13,892 nucleotides of DNA. Source: Candidatus Nanohalobium sp. (GTDB taxonomy: Archaea > Nanohalarchaeota > Nanosalinia > Nanosalinales > Nanosalinaceae). The stretch lies in the NCBI GenBank assembly GCA_042217545.1, contig JBDGSM010000044.1, positions 1 to 13,892 on the forward strand, read 5' to 3'. Within the stretch, counting starts at the first letter, position 1. Every line of letters begins with the position of its first letter. The notes under the pieces are model-generated. The model was not told the DNA's origin. It was given only the letters and a program-made list of their open reading frames with translations, and ran no database searches. This document shows, in pieces, positions 1 through 13,892 of this stretch. Made by a program: the position numbers and the translations under genes.

Positions 1-510
1 CAGATAATCGTAACCTCTCTCTGGAAAGAAGATCCTGATCCAAAGGGAATAACACGTGTAGGACCGCTCGCACAGGAAGGAGAAAGCGATGAAAGCATAG
101 AGGAATACGACGTTCTCATAAATCCGGGCACACACGGGGAAAACTTCGATAAGATAAATGAGAAACTTGAGGAGAAAGGCCTCGACGTGAGACAGGTAGG
201 AGACGATAAATGGGAAACCAAACCTGCAATGACGCCCTATACTGAAAAAGCAGATGTAGTTATCTGCACAGGATTCTCATCTATTGCGGACACGGTCGTG
301 GCAGGAACACCATGTATAATATACCCATTTCTCCCTTTCCAGAAGGCGCTTGGAGACAGGGTAGAAGAAAAAGGCCTCGAAGGAATCACAAAAGCCACTT
401 CAGTAGATGAGGTGGTGGAGAAAGCAGAGTACTTCACCAATGTGGCCTCAGAAAGCCCTGATTACGAAAACGGAGCGCCAGAGTTCGTGGACGTCCTTCT
501 GGACGGCTGA
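1..510 (+). CDS. GT-B fold glycosyltransferase, C-terminal part (GT28-C / MJ1255-like); 5' end outside the window
   Basis: Frame is open from base 1 (QIIVTSLWKEDPDPKGITRVGPLAQ...) and continues into the 187..510 ORF. Motifs 'VGPL', 'ADVVICTGFSSIADTVVAGTPCIIYP' and 'FQ' resemble the nucleotide-sugar-binding C-terminal domain of MurG/GT28-like enzymes. Confidence 0.75.
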   Translation, partial: QIIVTSLWKEDPDPKGITRVGPLAQEGESDESIEEYDVLINPGTHGENFDKINEKLEEKGLDVRQVGDDKWETKPAMTPYTEKADVVICTGFSSIADTVVAGTPCIIYPFLPFQKALGDRVEEKGLEGITKATSVDEVVEKAEYFTNVASESPDYENGAPEFVDVLLDG

Positions 511-531
511 AAACGCGTTATTCTCTTAAAG

Positions 532-1626
532 GTGAGCAAACTGAAAACGGAAGACGGGAAAGGAAACGAAGCCTCTGCACAGGGAAAAGGACTTAAGATA
601 GGTTTCTTCGCCGACAGCTACTTCCCGAGAAAGGACGGGCAGGTATACACGGTCAAGACGTGGAAACAGAAGCTGGAGGCCAGAGGCCACGAAGTATACG
701 TTATCTATCCTGGCTCCGACCATGAACCGGGTGAGTACGAGATAGCCTTGAGATCCGTTAAAAATCCGTGGTACAAGCATTACATAGGCCTTCCGTTGGG
801 AACCGGATCTCTTCCGGACCTTGACGTTGTACACTGCCATTCTCCAGGGCCTATAGGCCTTTTAGGCAGGTACTACGCTAGGAAAAAAGATATAGCTTCG
901 GTCTACACCTTCCATACGCCACTTGAGGAGTATATTCCGCAGGTTGTCAGGCCTGATTTTATCTCGACTGCTGTGAACCGTGCTTACCGATGGATCGATA
1001 ACAAGTTTCTGAACAGCTTTGATGCAGTAACGTCAAACACGGCTGAGATCCCGAGGGATATAGAGTTCACAGAGCTACCTGTCGGGATAGACATGGACTA
1101 CTTCCATGAAACTGGGGAATCGTTTGTGGATGAAATGGACGTGGAAAGACCTGTCCTCGGATACTCTGGAAGGCTCAGCGAGGAGAAGAAGATAGATCAG
1201 TTGATAGAGTTCTTCGAGGGACTTGAAGGCACGTTGATCATAGTAGGTGAGGGCAGGGACGAGGAAAGACTGAAGCAGAAGGCGTCGGAAAACGTGGTTT
1301 TCAGGGATTTCCTGCCGCGTGAGAAGCTTCCCGAGTTCTACTCAGGTATAGATGTCTTCGCCACCTGCTCCGAGTCCGACACTCTAAGCCTTACGACGCT
1401 GGAGGCCTCCGCCTGTGGAACTCCCGTGCTTGCGCCAGATGTTCATCCGTTTGACGGCACGATAAACGGCAATGGCGAATGTTTCAGGCCTGGAGACCGT
1501 GAGGACTTTGAGGCGAAACTTGAAAAAGTGCTGGAGAAAGATTACAGTACCCGGAAGGAAGTGGAGCGTTTCTCAATGGAGAAAAGTATAGATAAACTGA
1601 TTGAACTGTATCGAGAGGTGATGTAA
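532..1626 (+). CDS. GT4 family glycosyltransferase (resembles 1,2-diacylglycerol 3-alpha-glucosyltransferase-like group)
   Basis: Motifs: N-terminal 'KIGFFADSYFPRKDG', 'RGHEVYVIYP', 'DVVHCHSP', 'VYTFHT', 'YSGRLSEEKKID', and the D-x7-E motif 'DTLSLTTLEASACGTPV'. Start is uncertain (GTG at 532; no ATG at the usual MKIG position). Confidence 0.9.
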   Translation: MSKLKTEDGKGNEASAQGKGLKIGFFADSYFPRKDGQVYTVKTWKQKLEARGHEVYVIYPGSDHEPGEYEIALRSVKNPWYKHYIGLPLGTGSLPDLDVVHCHSPGPIGLLGRYYARKKDIASVYTFHTPLEEYIPQVVRPDFISTAVNRAYRWIDNKFLNSFDAVTSNTAEIPRDIEFTELPVGIDMDYFHETGESFVDEMDVERPVLGYSGRLSEEKKIDQLIEFFEGLEGTLIIVGEGRDEERLKQKASENVVFRDFLPREKLPEFYSGIDVFATCSESDTLSLTTLEASACGTPVLAPDVHPFDGTINGNGECFRPGDREDFEAKLEKVLEKDYSTRKEVERFSMEKSIDKLIELYREVM

Positions 1627-1627
1627 C

Positions 1628-3277
1628 TTGGGTTCAGACAACGTTGACATCTTCAAGAAAGTAATATTCCATATACCCGATTTCAGAACTATATTAGCTG
1701 CTGTAATAGGCCTGGGAGTGCTCTATTCTTCTTTAACATTTCTCGCATTCGATCTTATAGGTAACCGGTCATTCAGCCTGTGGGCAGTGCCTTTCATAGC
1801 GTTCTTTGTCTACATTTTCCCGGCTGTGGCTTCTGGAGAGGCCTATTACTATGTCCTTCCGGATTATCCAAGGAGCTGGGGCTACTTCCTGGCGATGAGC
1901 AATCAGCTGATGCTGTTTATCTACAGCCTGGTCTTAACGCTGTCGGGAAGCCTGGTAACAACCTGGAACATCATCTGGCTAGGCCTCATAACGATCTACC
2001 TGTCGAACTTCTTCGTACTCCTCCTGTCGGTAGGAACAGACCAGATGAAGAAAGTATCGCTGATAAGCCTGATCCAGCCACTGCTGATACTGGCCTCTTT
2101 CCACTTCTTCCTCGGAAGATACATGCAGATCCCCCTGGTCCTCTACCTCATGAACTTCGGATTCCTCTTCGTAATGGGATTCATACTGCTCATAGTCCTG
2201 CTCATGTTCGACTACCTGATGGGCAGCAACGTATCCAACTTCACAATAACAGGCATGGCATCAGCTCTACTCCAGAAACGCCAGGAAGCACTGGATCTTG
2301 GCTACCCGACAAGGCCTGATGTACAGGCCTTCAGACTTGAGAAACAGGATTCAGCGCTTAACGTTTCAATCCCGTGGGTGCATCCAGGTCCTCTTGAAGG
2401 CTTCGGAGGCGGAAAAGTCACGACGCATATGATCGACGCATTAAACGATGAAGAAGACGGTTTCTTCTTCCACGTGCCATCGACGCACCAGGCTGATCCA
2501 GCAGATCCGAGAGACACGGCAAAGCTCGTAGACGCAATGGAGAAACCAGAGACCACGGGAAAGGCCTCAAAACTTCACAAGAAAGAGTTCGAAAACGCCA
2601 CGTTCTACGGCAGAACTTTCGGAGACCAGAAGATTGTCTTCATGGATGTACACCGGTTCGACGACTACGAAATGGCAGTATTCAAGGAGATAATAGACCT
2701 CGAGAACACAACGATCATCGACATGCACAACCACAACCCGCACAAAGGCGAAAGACCTCTGATGTACTATGGAACCTCCATGGCCGACAAAATGCGGGAA
2801 AGAATGCATGAGTTCATCGAAGAACTTGAAGGCCTGGAACAGCATGAGTACCGGGCAGGCTACGAGGTAGAACTGAACGCACCATCCCTCTTCAGCCTGA
2901 TAGAGGAAGTAGACGGCCAGAAAACACTGCTGTTTGGAATAGAAGGAAACGGATCCTCCAGGAACCTTAGAGAACTTAGAGAAGAATACCAGGACCAGTT
3001 TGACGAAGTACTGCTGTTCAGCACCGACACACACAGCAGTATACATGAAATGGCAACAGAGAAACAGGTAGAGAAACCGAAAGTCCGTAAAGTCATAGAA
3101 AAAGCATCACAGAACATTTCAAAGGCCTCGATAGGCCTTTCACACGGCAAAGCTGAAAGGATGAGACTTCTGCAGAAGGACTACTCCTCGCTGATGACCA
3201 GCATCAACATCCTTCTCCGGCTGATACCTCTAACACTGGCCATATTCTATGTCATCCTCGTGGTCTGGGTTCTCTAG
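1628..3277 (+). CDS. DUF2070 family archaeal membrane protein
   Basis: About 6 N-terminal hydrophobic segments, a soluble domain with 'HPGPLEGFGGG', 'HVPSTH', 'DMHN' and 'STDTH', and a final C-terminal TM helix. TTG start preceded by SD GAGGTG (1615-1620). Confidence 0.85.
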   Translation: MGSDNVDIFKKVIFHIPDFRTILAAVIGLGVLYSSLTFLAFDLIGNRSFSLWAVPFIAFFVYIFPAVASGEAYYYVLPDYPRSWGYFLAMSNQLMLFIYSLVLTLSGSLVTTWNIIWLGLITIYLSNFFVLLLSVGTDQMKKVSLISLIQPLLILASFHFFLGRYMQIPLVLYLMNFGFLFVMGFILLIVLLMFDYLMGSNVSNFTITGMASALLQKRQEALDLGYPTRPDVQAFRLEKQDSALNVSIPWVHPGPLEGFGGGKVTTHMIDALNDEEDGFFFHVPSTHQADPADPRDTAKLVDAMEKPETTGKASKLHKKEFENATFYGRTFGDQKIVFMDVHRFDDYEMAVFKEIIDLENTTIIDMHNHNPHKGERPLMYYGTSMADKMRERMHEFIEELEGLEQHEYRAGYEVELNAPSLFSLIEEVDGQKTLLFGIEGNGSSRNLRELREEYQDQFDEVLLFSTDTHSSIHEMATEKQVEKPKVRKVIEKASQNISKASIGLSHGKAERMRLLQKDYSSLMTSINILLRLIPLTLAIFYVILVVWVL

Positions 3278-3309
3278 ATTTGAAATAACTTGGCCACAAA
3301 TCTCATGAT

Positions 3310-3630
3310 ATGCCTACCAAAGAAGAAGTCGAGGAACAGCTCAAGGAAGTGATCGACCCGGAACTCGACATAAACATAGTAGATTTAGGCCTTATAAGGG
3401 AGATAGATATCGAAGACGACTCCGTAGAGATCCTTATGACGCTGACAACTCCCGGATGCCCGCTCCACAGCGTATTCGACGAAATGGTCCGACAGGAAGT
3501 CGGAGGCCTGACAGATATCAACAAAGTCAACGTGGAACTGACCTTTGAACCACGCTGGACGCCAGAAGATATGAGCGACGAAGCAAGAAATGAAATGGGT
3601 AACATCCCCGGAATGGCCGGTGGATTCTAG
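3310..3630 (+). CDS. DUF59 / SufT / MIP18-like Fe-S cluster assembly factor
   Basis: 'LKEVIDPELDINIVDLGLI', 'MTLTTPGCP' and 'LTFEPRWTPEDMS' match the DPE-x-T-x-C DUF59 signature. Confidence 0.93.
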   Translation: MPTKEEVEEQLKEVIDPELDINIVDLGLIREIDIEDDSVEILMTLTTPGCPLHSVFDEMVRQEVGGLTDINKVNVELTFEPRWTPEDMSDEARNEMGNIPGMAGGF

Positions 3631-3631
3631 A

Positions 3632-3682
3632 CCAGTTGCAGATACAGCGACTGGGAGTGTTTGATGAGTCTAGGGACTCATC
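3632..3682. terminator. Two stem-loops between convergent genes; possible bidirectional terminator or stabiliser
   Basis: CCAGTTGC-agataca-GCGACTGG (3632-3654, one G.U pair) and a perfect GATGAGTC-tagg-GACTCATC (3663-3682) that overlaps the HD stop codon. Confidence 0.45.
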
Positions 3683-4646
3683 TCTCTTTGATATTTACGC
3701 TGTAGCCTGACTTCACGAACTCCATGTGTTCCTCGATCCTTTCCTCCAGCTCTTCTGAGAACTCTGAGGCCTTACGCACTTCTCCATCGACAAGCACCGG
3801 AGGATCAACGGCCCTGGCTTTTGTAGTAACCTCCATATCAGGGTCCTCAGCCTCTAACTCGATCTCGAAACCGTTGTCAAGCAGCTCAAGTTTTTCCTTG
3901 ATAACTTCGTTTTCAGCGGACCTGAGCGTCCCCATAACCTCTTCATCAGTACCGAAAAGCTCTTCCTCAGCCAGGATATCCTGTTTCAGGGCCTCTCTTA
4001 TAGCATCCGCAAATATCTCTGTTATAATGACTTCCTTGGGATTCGCCCACCACTTCTCGTCCGCCTCCGCGTACTTCTTTCCGTACTCGACCGCTTTCTC
4101 TTTATCGTCCAGGACGAACATGCCTTCGGCAGCGGTAATAGAATCCACGAAATGCTGAACTTTCCAGCCTCCGTAACGCTTCGAATCCCTGAGGAAATAA
4201 TCGATCCTGTCCGCGCAGAGATCCGGCGCATCTCTTTCCAGAAGGCCAAAGTTCTCCTCGTCAAGTATATAATCAACGTCAAGGCCGTGCCTCTCCAGTA
4301 TCTCCGGTATCTCCGAATCCTTCACAACTTTCTCCAGAAAACGGTCGTGATAATCATGTTCGTCCGTATCGTAGACGAAATCAGCAGTATGCGAGAAAGC
4401 TGTATGCGGAACATCGTGTAAAAGGCCTGCGATCTCCTCCTCGATACTTGCGCCGTGCTCGCGCAGCAAAAGCATAACGCCCAGAGAATGCTCGTACCTC
4501 GTCATCGGATACTTATCCATGAAAAACGGTTGAGGCCCTGCCTGATGAATATTTTTCAAACGCTGGAAAGGCCTTGAATCGATCAACTCCTTCAGTACTT
4601 CTTCTTCGACTTCTCTGTCGCCGTAGACCGCGTCCTCTATCAACAT
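3678..4646 (-). CDS. HD-domain phosphohydrolase (dNTP triphosphohydrolase / SAMHD1-like superfamily)
   Basis: Motifs 'FQRLKNIHQAG', 'TRYEHSLGV', 'LLHDVPHTAFSH' and 'ADRIDYFLRD'. Confidence 0.92.
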   Translation of the reverse strand: MLIEDAVYGDREVEEEVLKELIDSRPFQRLKNIHQAGPQPFFMDKYPMTRYEHSLGVMLLLREHGASIEEEIAGLLHDVPHTAFSHTADFVYDTDEHDYHDRFLEKVVKDSEIPEILERHGLDVDYILDEENFGLLERDAPDLCADRIDYFLRDSKRYGGWKVQHFVDSITAAEGMFVLDDKEKAVEYGKKYAEADEKWWANPKEVIITEIFADAIREALKQDILAEEELFGTDEEVMGTLRSAENEVIKEKLELLDNGFEIELEAEDPDMEVTTKARAVDPPVLVDGEVRKASEFSEELEERIEEHMEFVKSGYSVNIKER

Positions 4647-4754
4647 AGAAAAGACCTTTGAGAGAGAACATTAAATTCTCTTCCACTTGCTCAAGGAGAA
4701 GTTCGAAAGCCACCCAGCCGCGGCTTCAGATGATAAAACTCTCTATATGAGTTT

Positions 4755-4826
4755 TGCGGCGTCGGGGATTTGAACCCCGGTTACGCGCATGGCAAGCACG
4801 TGTCTTAGCCACTGGACCAACGCCGC
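4755..4826 (-). tRNA. tRNA-Gly (anticodon GCC), intronless, CCA not encoded
   Basis: Reverse complement reads GCGGCGTTGGTCCAGTGGCTAAGACACGTGCTTGCCATGCGCGTAACCGGGGTTCAAATCCCCGACGCCGCA. It has a 7-bp acceptor stem, anticodon loop TT-GCC-AT, T-loop TTCAAAT and discriminator A. Confidence 0.97.
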
Positions 4827-4954
4827 GGATTGAATCCGCTAAGTATCAGAAACTCCTTCCGGAGTTTCGTCAAAGCCGCATCGTGTTACGCTACGATTGC
4901 GCAGGGAGCCATGCGAGGCATCACTCTTCGATATGAAGATGTTGTTTGGTTATT

Positions 4955-4964
4955 TTATTAAATC
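4955..4964 (-). promoter_or_regulatory. Putative TATA box for the tRNA-Gly transcript
   Basis: Minus strand reads ATTTAATAAA, the clearest TATA-like run upstream of the tRNA. It implies a leader of about 100 nt. Confidence 0.45.
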
Positions 4965-5034
4965 GAGTGTTTTTCCGGGTGGAGGCCTCGCGGTGAGATG
5001 CACATTTTTGAAGTTTGGAAGACAACTTCAGGTT

Positions 5035-5496
5035 ATGAAGGATAAAAGTCCGGATATGGATGATGAGGCGAGGAAGGATTTCCTGGTTGACAGGGCGAAA
5101 GAAGCTATTGAAGAACAGCTTGAATCAGAGAATCCGCCTTTCGACGAGGAAAGGCCTGAAAGACCTGAGCTGAACAGGAAAAGCAGTTCTCTCGATGAGA
5201 GAGTCGAACATCAGGCCTCCAGCATGACGGATTCTGAATGGTCCCAGGAGGAGATCGAGTTCCTGAAGAACAACAGGACTGAGATGAGCAACAACGAGAT
5301 AGAGGAGTTCATGCAGAAGGACTCCAAGTTCCATAAAGTTGACTGGGAACCGTTCTCCCGTTCACAGGAAAGATACCTGATCCAGACCTACCAGACGTCG
5401 GACATCGACGAATTAGCGGACCAGATGGATCGTGAACCGAAAGTTCTACGCCTGAAGCTGAAGATGATGGGCCTTGAAGTTCCGGAGGCAGAGTGA
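5035..5496 (+). CDS. Acidic hypothetical protein (153 aa) with two Myb/SANT-like HTH repeats
   Basis: Likely start is ATG 5035 (TTTTTGAA box about 25 nt upstream; acidic composition begins here). Repeats are 'WSQEEIEFLKNNRTEMSNNEIEEFM' and 'FSRSQERYLIQTYQTSDIDELADQMDREPKVLRLKLKMMGL'. The stop is 1 nt before the nop5 ATG. Confidence 0.75.
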   Translation: MKDKSPDMDDEARKDFLVDRAKEAIEEQLESENPPFDEERPERPELNRKSSSLDERVEHQASSMTDSEWSQEEIEFLKNNRTEMSNNEIEEFMQKDSKFHKVDWEPFSRSQERYLIQTYQTSDIDELADQMDREPKVLRLKLKMMGLEVPEAE

Positions 5497-5497
5497 G

Positions 5498-6244
5498 ATG
5501 GATAGAGAGGAGCTCAGGGAGAAAGCACTTTCTGACACGAAGGAAGAGCTCCGGAGCGAGGTAGACCGGGACGAAATTCTTGTCAAAGCGGTGAAATATC
5601 TCGACCAGTTGAATGACAATATACACACGGAAGTCGAACGCCTGCGTGACTGGTACTCCCTGCATTTTCCGGAACTGGAGCAGGAGATCGGTGACAACGA
5701 GCATTTCGTAAAAATACTTGAGCGAGGCATCGACAGAGACGATCTCGATGCTTTCTCGGACATGGCAGATGCCTCCACAGGCATGTCATTGACAGAGGAA
5801 GACGAACTGATGATCGAAAGCACTGTCGACTCTATATCGGACAGGATGGAGCTCAGAGACCGTATAGAAAACTATGTCGAGTCAGGGGTGAAAGAGGAGA
5901 TACCCAACCTCTCAAAGCTTCTCGATCCTATTCTCGCAGCAAGACTTGTAGGCCTAGCAGGAAGCCTGGACGACCTGGCGAAGAAGCCAGCAAGCACAGT
6001 CCAGATGCTCGGCGCAGAAAAGGCTCTGTTCCGTTATCTCCGGGGAAACGGCACCCCGCCAAAACATGGCATCATTTTCCAGCACGAATACGTCAACCAG
6101 CTTCCAGAGGACAGGAGAGGCAAGATGGCGCGTTTTCTGGCGAACAAGGCCTCTATCGCTGCACGTCTCGACAACTACGGGGACAAGGATAAAGGTGCGG
6201 AGCTACGTGAAGAATGTGGCGAAAAGTTCGAGGAGCTGAGGTGA
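5498..6244 (+). CDS. nop5: Nop5 (Nop56/58) box C/D RNP protein, short form (248 aa)
   Basis: Motifs 'ERLRDWYSLHFPEL', 'PNLSKLL', 'LAKKPASTVQMLGAEKALFRYL' and 'PPKHGIIFQH...RGKMARFLANKASIAARLD'. ATG at 5498 follows the upstream TGA. Confidence 0.96.
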   Translation: MDREELREKALSDTKEELRSEVDRDEILVKAVKYLDQLNDNIHTEVERLRDWYSLHFPELEQEIGDNEHFVKILERGIDRDDLDAFSDMADASTGMSLTEEDELMIESTVDSISDRMELRDRIENYVESGVKEEIPNLSKLLDPILAARLVGLAGSLDDLAKKPASTVQMLGAEKALFRYLRGNGTPPKHGIIFQHEYVNQLPEDRRGKMARFLANKASIAARLDNYGDKDKGAELREECGEKFEELR

Positions 6245-6250
6245 TCCTTC

Positions 6251-6898
6251 TTGGAAGAGGTACAACCCGGAATCTTCCGGAACAAGGGAAGAATCTACAC
6301 GAAGAACGCTGATCCCGGCCACAAGGTCTATGGCGAAGGCCTGATCGAGTTTGAAGATGAAGAGTACAGGAGATGGGATGCTAACAGGAGTAAAGCAGCG
6401 GCAGCGGTTCAGAATGGTATGAAGTTAGGCCTTGAACATGATGACATGGTTCTGTATCTTGGCGCGGCTTCGGGAACTACTGTGTCACATTTCTCGGATA
6501 TACTGGAGGAAGGTTTTATCGTGGGCGTTGAATATTCTGATACTGTTATCAGAGGCCTTGTCGAGCTTGCTGAGCTAAGAGAAAACATTGCACCTTTCCT
6601 GGGTGATGCGAGGAAGCCTGAGGAGTACAGTGAGTACGTGGATGAAGCTGATATGGTTTTCCAGGATATCTCTCAGAGAGATCAGGCGGAGATATTCCTG
6701 AAGAACTGTAGAGAATACCTTAGAGAGGGCGGTGTAGGCCTCCTTGCGGTTAAGGCCCGTTCGATTTCGTCTTCAAAGAGTAAGGATGAGATCTTTGGCG
6801 ATGTGCGTGAGAAAGTTGCTTCGGAGTTCGATATAGTTAATGAGGTGGAGCTTGATCCCCATGAGAGGGAGCATCTCGTGTTAAAAATTGAAGGGTAG
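6251..6898 (+). CDS. flpA: Fibrillarin-like rRNA/tRNA 2'-O-methyltransferase
   Basis: Motifs 'KVYGE', 'YRRWDANRSKAAA', 'VLYLGAASGTTVSHFSDI', 'GDARKPEEY' and 'FQDISQRDQ'. TTG start with SD GAGGTGA (6238-6244). Lies directly after nop5. Confidence 0.97.
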   Translation: MEEVQPGIFRNKGRIYTKNADPGHKVYGEGLIEFEDEEYRRWDANRSKAAAAVQNGMKLGLEHDDMVLYLGAASGTTVSHFSDILEEGFIVGVEYSDTVIRGLVELAELRENIAPFLGDARKPEEYSEYVDEADMVFQDISQRDQAEIFLKNCREYLREGGVGLLAVKARSISSSKSKDEIFGDVREKVASEFDIVNEVELDPHEREHLVLKIEG

Positions 6899-6903
6899 GG
6901 GAT

Positions 6904-7110
6904 TTATGGAGTTATGCTTGGTAAATAGTTCATGGTCGATTTCTTCATGTTTTCGACGTAGCCGTGACGGTCTATGTACTCGGGACTGGCGCAGCACTCT
7001 GCTTTGTGATTTATCTTGTACGCGGCTCCAAGAACAGCGTGTTTCATAGGCATGATTTTCTCCTCCGTTTCTTCCCCACAGTTTTTGCATCTAAAAGAGA
7101 CTGTTTTCAT
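6904..7110 (-). CDS. Small Cys-rich, putative zinc-binding protein (68 aa)
   Basis: Contains 'FRCKNCGEE' (CxxCG) and 'HKAECC'. GAGGA lies just upstream of the ATG and TTATAAA near 7151-7157 on the minus strand. The ORF fills the gap convergent with fibrillarin. Confidence 0.65.
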   Translation of the reverse strand: MKTVSFRCKNCGEETEEKIMPMKHAVLGAAYKINHKAECCASPEYIDRHGYVENMKKSTMNYLPSITP

Positions 7111-7226
7111 CTAATTCCTCTCCCCCTACTTGAGTTTTACCCTTCTGGGGTTTATAATGAAATGGAGGGTGTACCGCAACTTCCGATAGGAAAAATTCTA
7201 TAAATTCCCGCTACGAATCGGTACGT

Positions 7227-7761
7227 GTGAGAGGGGCAGGAGGAGCACAGCAGCTTACACTTGAGATATACAAAGAGGATTACGAAGGCGATATACATAG
7301 CTCTCTTCCGCCAGCGATCTACAGAAGTCTGGAGGAAGACCAGGACGAGTACGTCGAACTTTTCGGTATTGAAGACCTAAACCGTGTTTTATTTGAGGGT
7401 GAAAGAGCTGGCTCCGGCTGCATAGTTGAAGACTTCGCTATCTCGGGCTCCAGACACGACGGTGAAATCGTTGTAGGGCAGTGCGTCTCCTGTCGAGGAA
7501 AAGAAAAAAGTTATGAAGAGAAACTGGTTGAAAGCCTTCTCTACAGTCCGAGAAACTTTCGCCCGGAAACCTATGAGCGTATGAACGGCGGATACGTTGT
7601 CGCGGTTGATGAAGCTATGGACGGCGTACGTGGGATAGAGGGAAGGGGCGGAAGACGAAATAGAAGAATACGGAGTCGCTGAAGTAGACATCTTGGTCCG
7701 TGAGATTGATAGAGAGCCAGACCTTTTCTCTGAAACTGTGGAAAACTTCTTCGCGGACTAG
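7227..7761 (+). pseudogene. Acidic hypothetical protein with an apparent +1 frameshift near 7640-7647 (pseudogene, sequencing error or recoding)
   Basis: The 7227 frame turns Arg/Gly-rich after 7640. The +1 frame reads EGAEDEIEEYGVAEVDILVREIDREPDLFSETVENFFAD* and its TAG (7759-7761) overlaps the convergent sufC stop. Promoter-like GAAAAATTCTATAAA at about 7190-7204. Confidence 0.65.
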
Positions 7762-8513
7762 GCCTGAGCCTGTTCCTTCGCCCAGTCGTAGCCCTCGTTC
7801 TCAAGCTTCTCGGCAAGCTCCTGGCCGCCGGACTCAACTATCTTCCCGTCCACCATAACATGGACACGGTCCGGCTCAACATAGTCCAGGATCCTCTGAT
7901 AATGTGTGATCATCAAAATTCCCTGGTCCTCGGAGGCAAGCTGGTTAATGCCCTTCGCCACAACCTTCAAAGCATCAATATCAAGGCCTGAATCGATCTC
8001 ATCCAGTATAGCGTACTTGGGTTGAAGCACAGCCATCTGAAGTATCTCGTTCCGCTTCTTCTCACCGCCGGAGAACCCCTCGTTCAGGTAACGCCTGGCG
8101 TAGTCCTCCTCCATATCAAGGAGGTCAAGCTTCTCTCGCAGAAGCTCATTGAATTCGCTCTGAGGCATTGCTTCCTCACCTTCCTCTTCTCTGCGAGCAT
8201 CGATCGCCTCCTTCAAAAACTCGGCAACAGTGATGCCGGAGATCTCCGCAGGATACTGGAAACCGAGGAAAAGGCCTTCCCTGGCACGTTCATCTGTCTC
8301 CTCGTCGGTCACGTCCTCTCCGTCCACAAGAATCTTCCCGCCATCTATACTGTACTCGGGGTTGCCCATCAGGGCCTTACAGAGCGTGGATTTTCCTGAA
8401 CCGTTCGGACCCATGATCGCGTGGATCTCTCCTGGTTCAATATCCAGGGAAACACCTCTTACAATGTCCTCGTCCTCAACGGATACCTCCAAGTTTTCAA
8501 CTTCTAAAGTCAT
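7758..8513 (-). CDS. sufC: Fe-S cluster assembly ATPase SufC
   Basis: Walker A 'GPNGSGKST', 'GLFLGFQYPAEISG', signature 'RYLNEGFSGGEKKRNEILQ', Walker B 'ILDEIDSGLDIDAL', and 'ITHYQRILDYVEPDRVHVM'. Confidence 0.97.
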   Translation of the reverse strand: MTLEVENLEVSVEDEDIVRGVSLDIEPGEIHAIMGPNGSGKSTLCKALMGNPEYSIDGGKILVDGEDVTDEETDERAREGLFLGFQYPAEISGITVAEFLKEAIDARREEEGEEAMPQSEFNELLREKLDLLDMEEDYARRYLNEGFSGGEKKRNEILQMAVLQPKYAILDEIDSGLDIDALKVVAKGINQLASEDQGILMITHYQRILDYVEPDRVHVMVDGKIVESGGQELAEKLENEGYDWAKEQAQA

Positions 8514-8637
8514 GAGAATTAGGTAGGCCTAAAACTTCTTAAGAACCCGGCCGGGGCAGGTAGAAGACTTCAAAGGCCCGACTTGGTAAACGGATAAAAA
8601 GTTATCTGGACGGATGTATAACCCCGGTGAACACATA

Positions 8638-8895
8638 ATGTCGGTATTTGAATACGAAGAAGCAGTTGAAAGTCTCCTGAAGGAGGTTAACGGATACGGC
8701 TTCTCCTGGAGCCTTGAAGCGGACCGTGAAAATATCAGGGAAGACGAAAACTTCCTCTACCTCGAACTGGAGTCCTCAGAGGATATATGGGATCAGTTCC
8801 AGGAACTTGGAAACTACCTGGATGCAAGAAGCACAGGACAGGTCAATAATGGAGAAAGTTACGTCCTATCGGTCGAAAAAGAACGATTCCAGTGA
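8638..8895 (+). CDS. Small acidic hypothetical protein (about 85 aa)
   Basis: Composition matches the acidic proteome. SD-like GGTGA (8626-8630) precedes ATG 8638, in frame with the 8614..8895 ORF. Confidence 0.65.
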   Translation: MSVFEYEEAVESLLKEVNGYGFSWSLEADRENIREDENFLYLELESSEDIWDQFQELGNYLDARSTGQVNNGESYVLSVEKERFQ

Positions 8896-8901
8896 AGAGA
8901 C

Positions 8902-9525
8902 TTACTTCTCTCCCCGCATCTCCGCCCTGAAACGCTCAACGAAATCCTTCACGTAGCTATGCCTTTTCTCCGCAACTTCAAGGCCTGAATCAGTGTACAC
9001 CCTGCTCTTGAGGTTCAGGATCTTCTTCTGCAGATGGTTGAACGAGTTGCTGCCGCCAGCTTCTTCATCCTGTTCCGCAGGAAGTTCTAGATCGGCGATA
9101 ACTCTTCCATGCTCGCCTCCGTAGCTGAAAGTCCTTGCAATCCCCGTGGCCCCCAGAGCGTCAAGATTATCAGCGTCTGAAAGAACCCTGGCTTCAAGAG
9201 TTTCCGGGTCAGGCATTTTAGAATACCTGTGGCTTCTAACACAGTGCTGAACCTTTTCGATAAACCCTTCACTGTATCCAAGGCCTTCAAGTATATCTCC
9301 TGCTTTATCAGCGCCCCACTCTGCGTGGTTCTCGATCTCGCCTTCATCTTCCTTCTTCCTGCCGATGTCATGCAGGAGAACGGAGGCCTTAACAACTTCT
9401 TTATCCGCGTCTTCTTTCTCTGCAAGTTTTTCAGCAAGGTTCTCCACTCTTCTTACATGTTTCCAGTCATGCGCAGGTTTAACATCGCCGAAGAAGCTCT
9501 TCGCCTTTTTTCTGATTTTTTCCAT
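8902..9525 (-). CDS. HD-domain phosphohydrolase (YedJ-like)
   Basis: Motifs 'AHDWKHVRRV', 'LLHDIGR', 'NHAEWGA', 'SHRYS', 'SDADNLDALGATGIARTF' and 'AEKRH'. ATG 9525 lies 2 nt after the NUDIX stop (alternative start TTG 9531). Confidence 0.92.
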   Translation of the reverse strand: MEKIRKKAKSFFGDVKPAHDWKHVRRVENLAEKLAEKEDADKEVVKASVLLHDIGRKKEDEGEIENHAEWGADKAGDILEGLGYSEGFIEKVQHCVRSHRYSKMPDPETLEARVLSDADNLDALGATGIARTFSYGGEHGRVIADLELPAEQDEEAGGSNSFNHLQKKILNLKSRVYTDSGLEVAEKRHSYVKDFVERFRAEMRGEK

Positions 9526-9527
9526 GC

Positions 9528-9971
9528 TCAACGGTAATCCCTCACCGCGTCAAGGCCTCCAATCTTATCATTTTGTACGTTCTCGATCGCATCAAGTATG
9601 AACGGAGTCCTCAGATCCATGTCTTCGATCTCATCCCTTGAGAAAAAGCCTGCGTCAAGAATCTCCTCTTCGTCTTCAGGATTCAGTTCCGGGTCACCGG
9701 AGATTTCGGAGTAGAAAACTATTACAATTACAGTCGCGTCCAGGTAGTCGCTGTCATCAAAGAAAACACCGGCCAGGCCTTTGATCTCGACTTCAAGGCC
9801 TGCTTCCTCCCATGCCTCACGTTCAGCAGCTTTTCTCGCTTCCTCTTCCTTTTCTATGCTGCCTGCGGGAACGTTCCACTGTCCCCTGACGTGCTCCTTG
9901 CCTTCCTGTACTAGAACGTACTCTCCGTCTTTCTCTATAAGGTTCCCAGCTACTAAGTGGTAGTCAGGCAT
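9528..9971 (-). CDS. NUDIX hydrolase
   Basis: Nudix box GSIEKEEEARKAAEREAWEEAGL matches G-x5-E-x7-RE-x2-EE-x-GL. Confidence 0.93.
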   Translation of the reverse strand: MPDYHLVAGNLIEKDGEYVLVQEGKEHVRGQWNVPAGSIEKEEEARKAAEREAWEEAGLEVEIKGLAGVFFDDSDYLDATVIVIVFYSEISGDPELNPEDEEEILDAGFFSRDEIEDMDLRTPFILDAIENVQNDKIGGLDAVRDYR

Positions 9972-9983
9972 TTCTGAGGCCTT

Positions 9984-10340
9984 TCAGTCTTCTTTCAGTG
10001 CTTCCTGTATGGTTTTGACGGGTAGCATGGCGCATTTGATCCTCATAGGTGAGAGGTCTACTTCGAGTTCGTCCTGCACCCAGTCGCTGTCAAGTTCTTT
10101 GACCTCCTCGACGCTCATGCCTACGAGTCTGTCGGAGAGGATGCTTGTGGATGCTGTGGAGATTGCACATCCGTCTGTTTCGTGTTTGATCTCCCTGATC
10201 TCGCCGTCCTCTACTTTGAGGTAGATGTCAGTTTCATCTCCACAGCTCGGGTTCTTTCCCTCTGTTTTTGCGTCTTCCTCATCGAGGCTTCCCTCGTTTC
10301 GAGGCCTTTTCGAGTGGTCCAGAATCTCTTCTCTATACAT
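9984..10340 (-). CDS. sufU: SufU/IscU-family (NifU-N) Fe-S scaffold or sulfur acceptor
   Basis: Motifs 'MYREEILDH', 'NPSCGD', 'DGCAISTAS' and 'RIKCAML' give three Cys plus the conserved Asp. No LPPVK motif. SD GAGGTG lies 7 nt upstream. Confidence 0.92.
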   Translation of the reverse strand: MYREEILDHSKRPRNEGSLDEEDAKTEGKNPSCGDETDIYLKVEDGEIREIKHETDGCAISTASTSILSDRLVGMSVEEVKELDSDWVQDELEVDLSPMRIKCAMLPVKTIQEALKED

Positions 10341-10343
10341 GTC

Positions 10344-10488
10344 GAAACACCTCAGTGTTTCTTAAATCCAGAAAATCTATGATTTTCGTCATCAGCCGAA
10401 AACCTCCGGTTTTCTGTGAATCTGAAAACGAAACTTCTCTTGGAGTTTCTTGCAGGAAATCCTAGGGATTTCCGAATCTTCGAGTTTC
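10344..10488. repeat. Array of 5-6 short GAAA..TTTC palindromic hairpins (REP-like)
   Basis: GAAACAC-ctca-GTGTTTC (10344-61), GAAAATC-tat-GATTTTC (10371-87), GAAAACC-tcc-GGTTTTC (10398-414), GAAACTTC-tctt-GGAGTTTC (10430-49), GGAAATCC-tag-GGATTTCC (10455-73), plus a degenerate copy (10474-88). Confidence 0.85.
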
Positions 10489-10494
10489 TTCATC

Positions 10495-11691
10495 CTAGAA
10501 AACCTCCTTAACCTTCTTTACCGCGTCCAAAAATTCTTTGACTTCTTCTTCGGTGTTGTAGAAGTATGGTGATGCCCTGACTGTTCCCGCTAGGTCGAGT
10601 TCCTGGTGCTGTGGCTGTGCGCAGTGGTGTCCTGCACGGACTGCGACTGCTTCTGTGTTGAGGACTTCTGCGACGTCGTGTGGGTGTGCTTCCTCCATGG
10701 TGAATGAGACGACGGAGGGTGTTTCGTCTTCCGGTGCGTGGATCTCGACGCCTGAGATCTCTTTGAGGCCTTCGATAATCATCTTGTTGAGCTTTCGTTC
10801 GTGCTGGTCGATGCCTGCAAGGCCTATGGACTGCAGGTACTCGGCTGCCTTCGCTAATCCGACCGCTCCCGCTATGTTGGGTGTGCCGGCTTCGAACCTG
10901 TCTGGTACTTCCCCGTATTTTACTTCGTCTTCCTCTACTGTTTCGATCATTCCGCCTCCTACCAGGAAGGGATCCATGTCTTCAAGCAGTTCTTTTTTGC
11001 CGTACAATGCTCCGGTTCCGGTCGGTCCGCACATCTTGTGGCCTGAGAAGCCCAGGAAGTCGATATCCGCCTCCTTGACATCTACAGGGACTCTCGGAAC
11101 GCTCTGAGCTCCGTCTACAAAGATGTAAGCGTCGTTTTCATGTGCGATCTCGGCGAGTTCTTCGACAGGGTTCCTGCATCCGAACACGTTGGAGATATGA
11201 GTAACTGAAACCAGCGCTGTATCCTCATCTATTATCTCTCTCACGGCATCCATGTCAAGCTCTCCCTCCTCTGTAGGAAGGAATTCAAGTTCAAGGCCTT
11301 CCCTTTTCGCTTTCTCTCGCCATGGAAGCTGCTCTGAGTGGTGGCTCATCTTCGGTACTGCGATCTTCCCGTCCAGGTCAAGGCCCTGTGCCACTACGTT
11401 TATGGATTCTGTCGTATTTCTGGTGAATATTATCTCGTCTTTCTCTGCCCCGACAAAGTCCGCTACTGTCGCTCTTGCGTTCTCGTAGGCGACCGTGGCT
11501 TTGTTCGCGAGTTTGTGAAGGCTTCTTCCCTCGTTGGAGTTTTCCTCTCTGTAAAATTTCTGGATTCTTTCGACTACCTGCTCAGGTGTGTGGGTGGTCG
11601 CTGCGTTGTCGAAGTATACTATCTGTTTTCCTTCAGACTTTTGCTTGAGGACTGGAAAGTCCTTCCTGTAGTTCTCCGGGTTAAGGCTCAT
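10495..11691 (-). CDS. sufS: Group II cysteine desulfurase SufS
   Basis: Motifs 'YFDNAATT', 'DGAQSVP', PLP-lysine 'FSGHKMCGPTG', 'FEAGTPNIAG', group II catalytic 'RAGHHCAQP' and 'RASPYFYNT'. SD GAGGAG upstream. Confidence 0.96.
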   Translation of the reverse strand: MSLNPENYRKDFPVLKQKSEGKQIVYFDNAATTHTPEQVVERIQKFYREENSNEGRSLHKLANKATVAYENARATVADFVGAEKDEIIFTRNTTESINVVAQGLDLDGKIAVPKMSHHSEQLPWREKAKREGLELEFLPTEEGELDMDAVREIIDEDTALVSVTHISNVFGCRNPVEELAEIAHENDAYIFVDGAQSVPRVPVDVKEADIDFLGFSGHKMCGPTGTGALYGKKELLEDMDPFLVGGGMIETVEEDEVKYGEVPDRFEAGTPNIAGAVGLAKAAEYLQSIGLAGIDQHERKLNKMIIEGLKEISGVEIHAPEDETPSVVSFTMEEAHPHDVAEVLNTEAVAVRAGHHCAQPQHQELDLAGTVRASPYFYNTEEEVKEFLDAVKKVKEVF

Positions 11692-11728
11692 AGAAAAATC
11701 CTCCTCTGTGAAAGTTTTGAACCCACTG

Positions 11729-11754
11729 CTTTTAAGGTAACCTCAAGGTCACCT
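11729..11754 (-). promoter_or_regulatory. Putative sufS promoter (TATA) with adjacent inverted repeat
   Basis: Minus strand reads AGGTGACC-ttga-GGTTACCT running into TTAAAAG about 40 nt upstream of the ATG. A T7 run (11770-11776, minus strand) downstream of MATE may terminate MATE. Confidence 0.4.
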
Positions 11755-11803
11755 GCACGACAGTACAAGAAAAAAGGGAATGAAAGGCCTCTGGACTGAG
11801 GTC

Positions 11804-13336
11804 CTAGGGCGTGATGTTTTTTACGAGGTTGAAAGGGTTCAGGAGTTTTTTCTTGATATTTTTTCCTGTATGGTCGCTGATTGTGCTTTCGAAGTCGTCT
11901 GCTTCCTCTGCTACTTCGCCCTGATTTCTCTTTTCCTCGTCCACGATTGATTCCTTCCAGGTTCCTCTGCGGTACCAGAGCCATGCTATCAGGCCTCCTA
12001 TCAGGTTGGAGGCTGCGAAGGCAATCCATACTGCTTCTGGACCGTTGTCTATGAAGACTGTTGAGCCTATGTAGGCTATTGGGAGTCTTACAAGGGCGAG
12101 TGCTGTGATGCTGATTGCTGCTGCAGTCATGGTGTTCCCTGCTCCCCTGAAGCTTCCTGTGTAGGCTCTCAGCACACCCATGAATCCAAAGGTTAGTGAT
12201 ACCCACCTTAGGAAGTCGGCTGCGACTGAGACAACTGCAGGATTGGTCGAGAATATTCCTGCGATCGGTGCTGCGAATATGAATGTTATTATGCCGATCA
12301 ATGTCAGGATTCCGAACATGTACTTGGCTGCGAGGTTTGCAGCTTCTTCTGCACGTTCTGGCTTTCCTGCTCCCAGGTTCTGCCCTGTCATTGTGGAGAC
12401 GGCCCATCCTCCGGCGATCGCTGGCAGGAAGATCAGTGAGAACATTCTTACCCCAATGCCGTAGCCTGAGACCACTTTTGTGCCGAAAAGATTTCCTACG
12501 ACAGCTACCAGTAAATTGACTGATACTGAACGGCCTACCCCGCCAAGGGTAGCGGGTGCTGCGATACCCATCATCCTCTTCAGGAATGAGAAGTCGGGAA
12601 CCATGTTCTCCAGTCGGATCTTTATACCCCTCTTACCGGTAAATAGTACGTAGAGGCCTGCTGCTAGGGCGAGTGCTCGTGAAAAGATCGTTGCTATCGC
12701 TGCTCCCGCTACTCCCATCTGTGGGAACATCGCCCATCCGTTGATCAGGAATGGGTCGAGCGCTATGTTCAGGATAACTGTGCCCAGCATAATCAGCATC
12801 GGAGTTACTACATCTCCGTATCCGCGCATTAATGACATGAAGACAGCGAATCCGAACATGAAGAACAGGCCTAGTGATATTATCTGCATGTAGCTTGTTG
12901 CGGAAGCTGCTACTGCTGCCTTTGCCCCGAAGAGGTCAACTATGTTTGGCATGACAAAGTAACCGATAGCTCCGAGAATTATCGACGCTATTAGGCTGAA
13001 AGTAATTGTCTGTGAGGCTGCGTAATCTCTTTCTTTCCCTTTTCCCGAGCCCTCGAACTGGGATACAAGCACGTTTCCGGCCACTGATAGGCCCATCCCG
13101 AGCGAGATCAGGAAGAACACCAGAGGGAATGCAAAGCTGATCGCTGCCAGCGCTTCCTTGGAGAACTGCCCCAGCCAGAACGTATCTCCAAGGTTGTACG
13201 CTGTCTGTAACAGATTGATCAGTACGATGGGGATAGCAAGGTATAGAAGATTTTCAGCAACCGGTCCTCCGGTGAGATCCAGATCCTCCTTTCCGCGGAA
13301 AAGGCCCTGGACACGCTCCACAATTTTGTTTATCAT
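11804..13336 (-). CDS. MATE family efflux transporter
   Basis: Motifs 'DLTGGPVAENLLYLAIPIVLINLLQTAYNLGDTFWLGQ', 'RGYGDVVTPM', 'NIALDPFLI', 'MGVAGAAIAT' and 'GQNLGAGKPERA'. About 12 TM segments in two halves. Confidence 0.96.
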   Translation of the reverse strand: MINKIVERVQGLFRGKEDLDLTGGPVAENLLYLAIPIVLINLLQTAYNLGDTFWLGQFSKEALAAISFAFPLVFFLISLGMGLSVAGNVLVSQFEGSGKGKERDYAASQTITFSLIASIILGAIGYFVMPNIVDLFGAKAAVAASATSYMQIISLGLFFMFGFAVFMSLMRGYGDVVTPMLIMLGTVILNIALDPFLINGWAMFPQMGVAGAAIATIFSRALALAAGLYVLFTGKRGIKIRLENMVPDFSFLKRMMGIAAPATLGGVGRSVSVNLLVAVVGNLFGTKVVSGYGIGVRMFSLIFLPAIAGGWAVSTMTGQNLGAGKPERAEEAANLAAKYMFGILTLIGIITFIFAAPIAGIFSTNPAVVSVAADFLRWVSLTFGFMGVLRAYTGSFRGAGNTMTAAAISITALALVRLPIAYIGSTVFIDNGPEAVWIAFAASNLIGGLIAWLWYRRGTWKESIVDEEKRNQGEVAEEADDFESTISDHTGKNIKKKLLNPFNLVKNITP

Positions 13337-13352
13337 ATGAATGGAGAGTCTG

Positions 13353-13401
13353 CCGAAAGTTTATAAAGGTGTTTCGAATCGAAATATTACGGACCGAAAG
13401 T
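13353..13401. promoter_or_regulatory. Divergent MATE/padR promoter region with candidate operators
   Basis: Palindromic TTTATAAA (13360-67), inverted repeat TTTCGA-A-TCGAAA (13372-84), a related TTACGGACCGAAA (13387-99), and direct repeat CCGAAAGT at 13353 and 13394. Confidence 0.5.
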
Positions 13402-13431
13402 AACTAAAGCTTTCAAGACCCCTTCTAAGTC

Positions 13432-13833
13432 ATGGGGAAGAAACTTCCCAGCGATATACTTCGCTTCATGGTACTAAAAAGTTTTCAAGACGATCCGAGC
13501 TATGGCTATGAAGTCGTCTCAACCATCGAAGAAGTCACAGATGACTACTGGAGCCCCAGCTATGGCACAATCTATCCCTTGATCCAGCGACTGGAAGAGG
13601 AAGGCCTTCTAACTGCTATAAGCTCCGAAGAGGCGGAGAGAAGAGGCCTTGATGATGGAGACCGCAAATACTTCGAACTTACAGATGAAGGTGAAGAGGA
13701 GATCTCCCCTGATGCGGATGAATCGGAGCTGAGGAAGCACTTTGAGGAGCTTATCCTTGGCTACCTGAAAATTTACCAGAACAAGTACGGGGAAGAGGCC
13801 ACAGAGGAGCTTCTGGAAGGTCTCGGAGATTAA
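13432..13833 (+). CDS. PadR family transcriptional regulator
   Basis: Motifs 'PSYGYEV', 'WSPSYGTIYPLIQRLEEEGL' and 'RKYFELTDEG'. Confidence 0.95.
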   Translation: MGKKLPSDILRFMVLKSFQDDPSYGYEVVSTIEEVTDDYWSPSYGTIYPLIQRLEEEGLLTAISSEEAERRGLDDGDRKYFELTDEGEEEISPDADESELRKHFEELILGYLKIYQNKYGEEATEELLEGLGD

Positions 13834-13836
13834 AAC

Positions 13837-13892
13837 ATGTCTCAAGCCCTTGCTGTGAAGGTTTCGGAACTGAAGAAAGTTTACGGTGAGGA
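13837..13892 (+). CDS. Probable ABC transporter ATP-binding protein, 5' fragment
   Basis: ATG lies 3 nt after the padR stop. MSQALAVKVSELKKVYGE resembles the 'I.V..L.K.YG' start of ABC ATPases. Only 18 codons are visible. Confidence 0.6.
   Translation, partial: MSQALAVKVSELKKVYGE

Follow-up and report, generated by a model that had tools for sequence, protein, structure and literature searches.

The hexamer AGGCCT is a highly iterated palindrome (HIP) in the archaeon Candidatus Nanohalobium sp., and was followed here from a stretch of 13,892 nucleotides (contig JBDGSM010000044.1, 1..13892; hereafter the window) to the whole source genome, designated G000, and to its relatives. The site occurs far above expectation throughout G000, is retained at orthologous positions, follows a graded specificity with local interference between sites, and is switched on or off in a patchy manner among relatives. 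A preliminary description, made from the window alone, had proposed a HIP1-like, genome-wide and frame-independent force acting on DNA in an archaeon; genome counts, synonymous-codon shuffles, a logit model and site conservation supported this proposal.

Abundance, specificity and conservation of AGGCCT

Genome G000, which is 92% complete and encodes acidic archaeal proteins, contains 3,699 copies of AGGCCT in 1.03 Mb (3.58 per kb). Copies were present on 82 of 82 contigs at 1.3–5.9 per kb per contig, and the excess is therefore not confined to the window. AGGCCT is the commonest hexamer of the genome, and the runner-up among palindromic hexamers has 603 copies. The observed/expected ratio was 15.1 under an order-0, 13.0 under an order-1 and 5.1 under an order-2 Markov model, consistent with the excess estimated from the window; it was 1.11 under a fourth-order model, which absorbs the excess as it would for any very abundant word.

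Codon usage was excluded as the explanation, as had been argued from the window. In 931 genes (our own gene calls), 2,841 sites were counted, as against a mean of 536 and a maximum of 578 in 20 within-gene shuffles of synonymous codons (5.3-fold). The three frames held 497, 934 and 1,410 sites, compared with 118, 179 and 239 after synonymous shuffling, and the places permitted by the protein were filled in 491/646, 934/1,544 and 1,410/1,927 cases, respectively. Non-coding DNA contained 563 copies against 27 expected. A conditional-logit model of synonymous choice, including codon and neighbouring-base terms, left log-odds of 3.66 for AGGCCT in G000 and 4.65 in its relative G003 (fitted on the first 880 kb), and −0.29 in G021, a genome without the excess (genomes with and without it are called positive and negative below).

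The preference was sharply graded. When five bases matched and the sixth could vary synonymously in G000, the consensus base was chosen in 88–98% of cases at all six positions against each of the three other bases. This pull excludes a Vsr-type T-to-C bias, which was ruled out as a candidate because all three alternative bases were depleted at every position and transversions were corrected as well as transitions. In the logit model, GGGCCT/AGGCCC was the favoured one-off class, with log-odds of 1.51 in G000 and 2.92 in G003 (−0.75 in G021), followed by CGGCCT (0.40 and 1.18) and TGGCCT (0.38 and 0.98), which stood at −0.41 to −0.52 in G021. The six inner mismatches were at background (−0.01 to 0.64 in G000 and G003 versus 0.09–0.36 in G021), and the GGCC core alone was not preferred, with log-odds below 0 for TGGCCA and CGGCCG. 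One-off variants were skewed to the outermost base at either end, which is a HIP feature.

Neighbouring sites interfered with each other over short distances. The filled fraction was 42% at less than 15 bp from another site, 52% at 15–25 bp, about 60% at 25–45 bp and 72–75% at 60–400 bp. In G000, the log-odds pull was 2.7–3.0 instead of about 3.7–4.0 where a neighbouring site lay within 45 bp; in G003, it was 3.7–4.0 instead of about 4.6 where one lay within 25 bp. The pull was thus about threefold weaker close to another site, and control palindromes were flat. Flank preferences were symmetric and at most about 10 points above controls, with A favoured at +3/+4 (non-coding sites 39/34% and 46/42%; controls 30/27% and 34/32%) and, in G003, T favoured at +9 to +12. 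The octamer CAGGCCTG made up 324 of 7,398 strand counts in G000, and the flanking C...G was not favoured. These patterns point to graded recognition by a putative two-fold symmetric protein with a reach of 25–45 bp, and the graded log-odds and the interference provide a predicted binding order and footprint. Short-range periodicity was limited to the codon period; over long distances, the top period was 39 kb at a permutation p of 0.062 (980 of 1,046 kb of G003).

Occupancy was 67–77% in all codon-bias quintiles and conservation classes. Density reached its maximum, 8.4 and 9.2 per kb, directly after stop codons and was lower at starts, no favoured placement was found at promoters, and low-GC islands with restriction genes held 2–7 sites per 5 kb. 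The preference has shifted protein sequences: in G000, G003 and the single negative genome compared, G021, the observed/expected ratios were 1.41, 1.52 and 0.81 for the dipeptide RP, 1.34, 1.31 and 0.99 for GL, and 1.25, 1.30 and 1.00 for AS. Conservation in orthologues was also confirmed, since 310 of 376 same-residue sites were common to G000 and G003, whose four-fold positions were only about 38% identical (0.38); the corresponding figure with negative G021 was 14 of 385. Synonymous sites and some residues of these genomes are not evolving freely.

A separate observation concerns G000:C17:12639-14450, a pair of geranylgeranyl reductase-like and prenyltransferase-like genes that is 72% identical to G003, absent from G021 and devoid of AGGCCT in 583 codons; it is possibly a recent transfer.

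Occurrence in relatives and in the window

Site density and the ratio to a reversed-motif control were surveyed in 50 genomes of the family, with rounded genome sizes; G001, G003, G019 and G054 are single contigs. Twelve genomes were strongly positive at about 2–4.8 per kb (g1, 3/3; g18, 3/3; g21, 4/5; g2, 2/6), G042 was intermediate at about 0.95 per kb, and 37 were negative at 0.7 per kb or less. The ratio to the control was 4.3–17.2 in positives versus 0.15–1.63 in negatives. The trait is therefore present in some relatives and absent from others, with a split within genus g2, where four of six genomes lack the excess. The order's other families, represented by 16 genomes, were negative in 16 of 16 cases. 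An assembly artefact is unlikely, given that the 12 positive genomes were assembled separately.

In a quick tree of RpoA1, the 12 positives and G042 all fell within one 26-row clade that also held 13 negatives (Shimodaira–Hasegawa-like approximate likelihood ratio test, SH-aLRT, 100). Monophyly of the positives was rejected (approximately unbiased test, p-AU 7e-97, for RpoA1 alone and 28 of 50 rows). In the RpoA1 gene of G042, one of 11 possible places was filled, and a single G/C-to-A/T difference was found at all six places filled in its sister G043; these six sites suggest that AGGCCT is decaying in G042 after loss of its cause. RpoA1 carried no amino-acid fossil of the site (possible places 9.4 versus 9.4 and 8.9), and these similar counts leave one origin followed by losses indistinguishable from repeated gains.

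Three negative genomes, G017, G018 and G021, avoid AGGCCT (ratio to control 0.15–0.28), and G021 also avoids GGCC-core words; a GGCC restriction system is perhaps responsible. The words CTAG, CCAA/TTGG and CTAA are depleted family-wide, and in G000 the strongest depletion also affects several CAAGnnG heptamers. The CTAG/CCAA depletion was rejected as a companion signature, as it does not follow the trait.

Among the matches listed in virus searches, 163 loci were at least 3 kb long; leaving aside the three selected sites, all of these had 1.9 per kb or less, and none appeared to be of nanohaloarchaeal origin; protein-based virus searches and two published accessions returned nothing. Among the matches listed for other prokaryotes, density was 1.4 per kb or less at each of 80 loci, which does not prove absence, and no RNA dataset with this DNA was among the matches listed.

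The window itself holds exactly 51 copies between 177 and 13649, with a mean of 3.98 and a maximum of 13 in 200 dinucleotide-preserving shuffles, none of which reached 51. The approximate count and every coordinate cited in the preliminary description were correct, as was the rarity of sister palindromes (TGGCCA 2, CGGCCG 1, GGGCCC 0). The sites are as follows, with no strand assigned.

AGGCCT starts 1–20 (counted): 177, 372, 786, 855, 949, 1403, 1486, 1708, 1839, 1981, 2312, 2325, 2562, 2830, 3123, 3133, 3387, 3504, 3767, 4423
AGGCCT starts 21–40 (counted): 4569, 4983, 5152, 5213, 5950, 6147, 6337, 6427, 6553, 6736, 7760, 7984, 8272, 8525, 8981, 9281, 9384, 9553, 9775, 9796
AGGCCT starts 41–51 (counted): 9977, 10302, 10766, 10820, 11294, 11785, 11991, 12654, 12867, 13602, 13644
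1..13892: ten secondary sites of the favoured one-off class (counted; GGGCCT 4, AGGCCC 6)
4983..4988: AGGCCT within the longest open reading frame (ORF) 4897-5496
8525..8530: intergenic AGGCCT upstream of the SufC-like ABC ATPase ORF 7758-8513
9977..9982: intergenic AGGCCT between the SufU/NifU-like ORF 9984-10340 and the Nudix ORF 9528-9971
11785..11790: intergenic AGGCCT with the MATE transporter ORF 11804-13336 on one side and the SufS-like ORF 10495-11691 on the other

By called ORFs, 48 sites lie in genes (4/7/18 over the three frames on the + strand and 2/3/14 on the − strand) and three are intergenic, which agrees with the earlier claim of sites in all frames and on both strands. Of the four sites placed between genes in that description, 8525, 9977 and 11785 stood, whereas 4983 lies inside ORF 4897-5496; this site is probably upstream of the true start, because the alignment of the G003 homologue begins only at about 5032.

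The genes of the window are ordinary, comprising a glycosyltransferase, DUF2070, Nop5, fibrillarin, Suf-type Fe-S proteins, HD and Nudix hydrolases, a MATE transporter and PadR. Pfam matches were found in 14 of the 16 proteins scanned, and none of these genes accounts for the abundance of AGGCCT. An acidic ORF of 93 residues at 8614-8895, without Pfam match, is present in G003, was not found in G021 and is regarded as a candidate. Two salt-lake sequencing runs contain this DNA and may be its source; their main contigs differ from the window at 492, 3936, 3939, 11653 and 12721, none within AGGCCT. Elsewhere in G000, an ORF of 8,305 residues was noted at G000:C9:32587-57504; giant surface proteins have been reported from this phylum (PMC10266531).

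Candidate causes and competing explanations

Our leading reading, held tentatively and at a little under an even chance, is that a putative sequence-specific factor, by binding AGGCCT, tilts repair or gene conversion in favour of the site. A two-fold symmetric DNA-binding or DNA-processing factor would recognise AGGCCT and, less well, GGGCCT/AGGCCC, and in a heteroduplex of two alleles would let the site-bearing allele win through biased repair or gene conversion, for which common enzymes such as NucS and RadA would suffice. NucS and RadA/RadB are present. AGGCCT would then fill every tolerated place, individual sites would have no function, and the sites would decay once the factor was lost. 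We infer the factor, its symmetry, and drive rather than fitness as the force; a transmission bias fits best because filling is uniform, proteins have changed, saturation is local and loss in a sister species appears quick.

Several points weigh against this reading. Static sequence cannot separate conversion bias from selection. No shift in divergence was seen in site flanks beyond 5 bp, although synonymous positions are near saturation. NucS is also present in negatives, and multiple chromosome copies or frequent recombination would have to be assumed for this lineage; haloarchaea are polyploid. No factor was found, and each candidate ORF tested across the family failed to track the trait, many of the candidates lying outside those tests. 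These candidates came from setting G000 and 980 of 1,046 kb of G003 against the complete sequence of G021, a closed genome: about 98 ORFs, some of them spurious, were common to the two positives and weak or absent in G021, and conversely 351 genes of G021 lacked a counterpart in either positive. No known site-specific DNA enzyme was recognised in the 65 candidates scanned with Pfam or the 28 scanned with NCBIfam. DNA-level searches overlook real orthologues, and their blanks are weak; G056 was covered in small part.

Candidates rejected by distribution were the PolB2 operon (present in negative G056, G057 and G059), an Mre11/Rad50-like pair (in negative G048 and G014, and without a match to the query used in g18 or g21), DnaG (in G056), an RHH protein, a small wHTH protein and ATL (in G057), a SWIM protein (in all four negative g2 genomes), Cdc6 paralogues (in negatives), a widespread HD dNTPase, and proteins present in 30 ('LGYP' family), 32 (AbrB), five (95 residues) and nine (159 residues) of the 50 genomes. 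NucS, uracil glycosylase, RadB, Alba and two histones were found in both positives and negatives. The candidates remaining include two small S-adenosylmethionine methyltransferases, unknown proteins of 81, 86, 44 and 253 residues, ThiI, PadR/SdpI and a metallo-beta-lactamase-fold protein.

Some of these loci were recorded in their own right. At G000:C37:1863-5787 and G003 L172:6224-9333 lies what we take to be a polymerase of the PolB2 type, accompanied by a small helical protein and a RadA-like neighbour; it was found in G000, G003, G023, G056, G057 and G059 but not in G021. A second Mre11-like and Rad50/YhaN-like pair (G000:C12:128-3116; L173:3727-6718) was strong in six of 50 genomes, in a patchy manner. 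Proteins of about 210 residues that share a G-x-FLGYP motif and match neither Pfam nor NCBIfam (G000:C17:31283-32551; L163:9141-12332; 30/50 genomes) were fused in tandem in G000 and G001. Contigs L085, L087 and L088 of G056 have only 30–37% GC in the first 20 kb versus 41–43% in other contigs, and these starts are islands or foreign sequence.

True selection for bound sites, exerted by a sequence-specific chromatin, protection or self-mark protein requiring a site every few hundred bases, is rather unlikely. It makes the same static predictions as transmission bias, and the footprint-sized interference over 25–45 bp, the symmetric preferences for A at +3/+4 and for T at +9 to +12 in G003, and the strong site conservation, which was read by Xu et al. 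as selection in the case of HIP1 (PMC5861425), all speak for it. However, each of 3,700–4,500 sites would have to be selected, the trait is absent from four of the six g2 genomes, promoters show no preferred position, and the best long-range period reaches only the p value given above. Two histones and Alba also occur in negative G021, and the AbrB-type and RHH candidates occur in negatives.

A ratchet of methylation-directed repair, of the kind that Elhai modelled for HIPs in cyanobacteria, is improbable; the methyltransferase behind it would be unrecognised, extrachromosomal or supplied by the host. Tolerance of the outer pair with a strict GGCC core mirrors the one-off pattern of HIP1 (PMC4390886), AGGCCT is a genuine methylation target in Alcanivorax (PMC12128166), and symbiont-to-host methylation is reported in a nanohaloarchaeal consortium (PMC11001535). 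Yet the association with a methyltransferase, suggested in the preliminary description, failed: no DNA methyltransferase of PF00145, PF01555, PF02086 or PF02384, searched in varying numbers of positives, is common to the positives or tracks them. PF00145 had no match in positives G000, G001, G003, G019 and G023 and one in G022. Among seven positives searched, PF01555 was above the cut-off only in G019, apart from a G000 match that was rejected as a tRNA methylase-like protein. PF02086 was found in none of five positives, and PF02384 was strong only in G003 and G019 among 12, with weak long-ORF matches in G001 and G055. Scanning G000 and 980 kb of G003 for methyltransferase motifs agreed with the Pfam searches, and a regular-expression motif scan of the same 980 kb found no MutS/MutL. 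Furthermore, Elhai's model saturates at about 1 site per kb (PMC4390886), versus 2–4.8 per kb with interference below 50 bp here.

A DNA uptake sequence built up by molecular drive, such as the DNA uptake sequences (DUS) and uptake signal sequences (USS), is very unlikely. The footprint in the proteome and the lack of sites in newly acquired genes recall uptake sequences (PMC2817400), HIP1 increases transformation (10.1101/2024.09.10.611283; PMC13756078), and G003 has a type IV pilus-type ATPase. The earlier idea of an uptake mark was nevertheless weakened by the search for DprA (PF02481; ComEC was not searched for), which was found in one of 50 family genomes, a negative one; in addition, the interference range is probably far below the length of transforming fragments. 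Known uptake sequences are longer than AGGCCT and non-palindromic.

An origin in codon or amino-acid preferences, in a simple mutational or Vsr-type T-to-C bias, or in faulty assembly is scarcely credible, being refuted in the main by the shuffles, the logit model, the non-coding excess, the equal correction of transversions and the 12 assemblies, despite the absorption of the excess by the fourth-order model, and the CTAG/CCAA depletion is independent of the trait.

Comparison with known systems

AGGCCT resembles HIP1 (GCGATCGC) and the alternate HIPs (PMC4390886; PMC5861425) in being a short palindrome that is hyper-abundant across the genome, in every frame as well as between genes, more conserved than synonymous positions, with one-off variants mainly at the outer pair, and patchy among relatives. 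It was filed as an archaeal HIP with four HIP features and, since the methyltransferase test failed, apart from the methylase-linked HIPs. Unlike HIP1, for which Elhai cites about 1 per kb (PMC4390886), it is an archaeal hexamer at 2–4.8 per kb, has no cognate methyltransferase found and no significant long-range period, and is switched on and off within one genus; some HIP1 genomes also lack a CGATCG methylase, according to Elhai. The octamer CAGGCCTG, over-represented in Synechococcus sp. PCC 6312 (PMC5861425), has AGGCCT as its core and is an alternate HIP of unknown cause, but it belongs to one cyanobacterium, and its C...G flanks are not those favoured in G000.

The DUS and USS (PMC2817400) likewise occur in thousands of copies, raise peptide frequencies and are missing in newly acquired genes, but they are linked with competence, whereas none of the AGGCCT positives has DprA. 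In Alcanivorax borkumensis SK2, nearly all of 1,674 AGGCCT sites are methylated (PMC12128166); the hexamer is the same, but it belongs to a type II restriction-modification system with named genes, of which no counterpart was found in positives. Restriction is expected to deplete sites, not to multiply them.

No report of AGGCCT hyper-abundance in archaea was found in the literature covered, which included few subscription papers and no supplements. The accessible text of the HIP papers PMC4390886 and PMC5861425 does not mention archaea, nor that of PMC4390886 AGGCCT, and the hexamer is absent from the main texts of PMC11001535, PMC10266531, PMC10609329 and 10.1101/2025.02.15.638363. Beyond the count, the present analysis measured how the specificity is graded, the short distance over which sites interfere, the switch within one genus and what appears to be decay in G042, and it lists the genes that were rejected.

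The origin and role of highly iterated palindromes are an open question, studied in the papers covered only in cyanobacteria and with methyltransferases as the main lead. The archaeal case lies in 1-Mb genomes, is denser than HIP1, lacks a shared methyltransferase, is split within g2 and includes one apparent loss, which makes its cause findable across about 50 small genomes. With somewhat less confidence than our leading reading, we consider it possible that the drive is independent of methylation, such that a small mobile or losable factor reads the unmodified 6-bp palindrome, converts genome and proteins, and switches on and off between sister species. If true, this would add a new way in which highly iterated palindromes can arise, and matched on/off pairs could expose a mechanism that has been hidden for HIP1 for thirty years.

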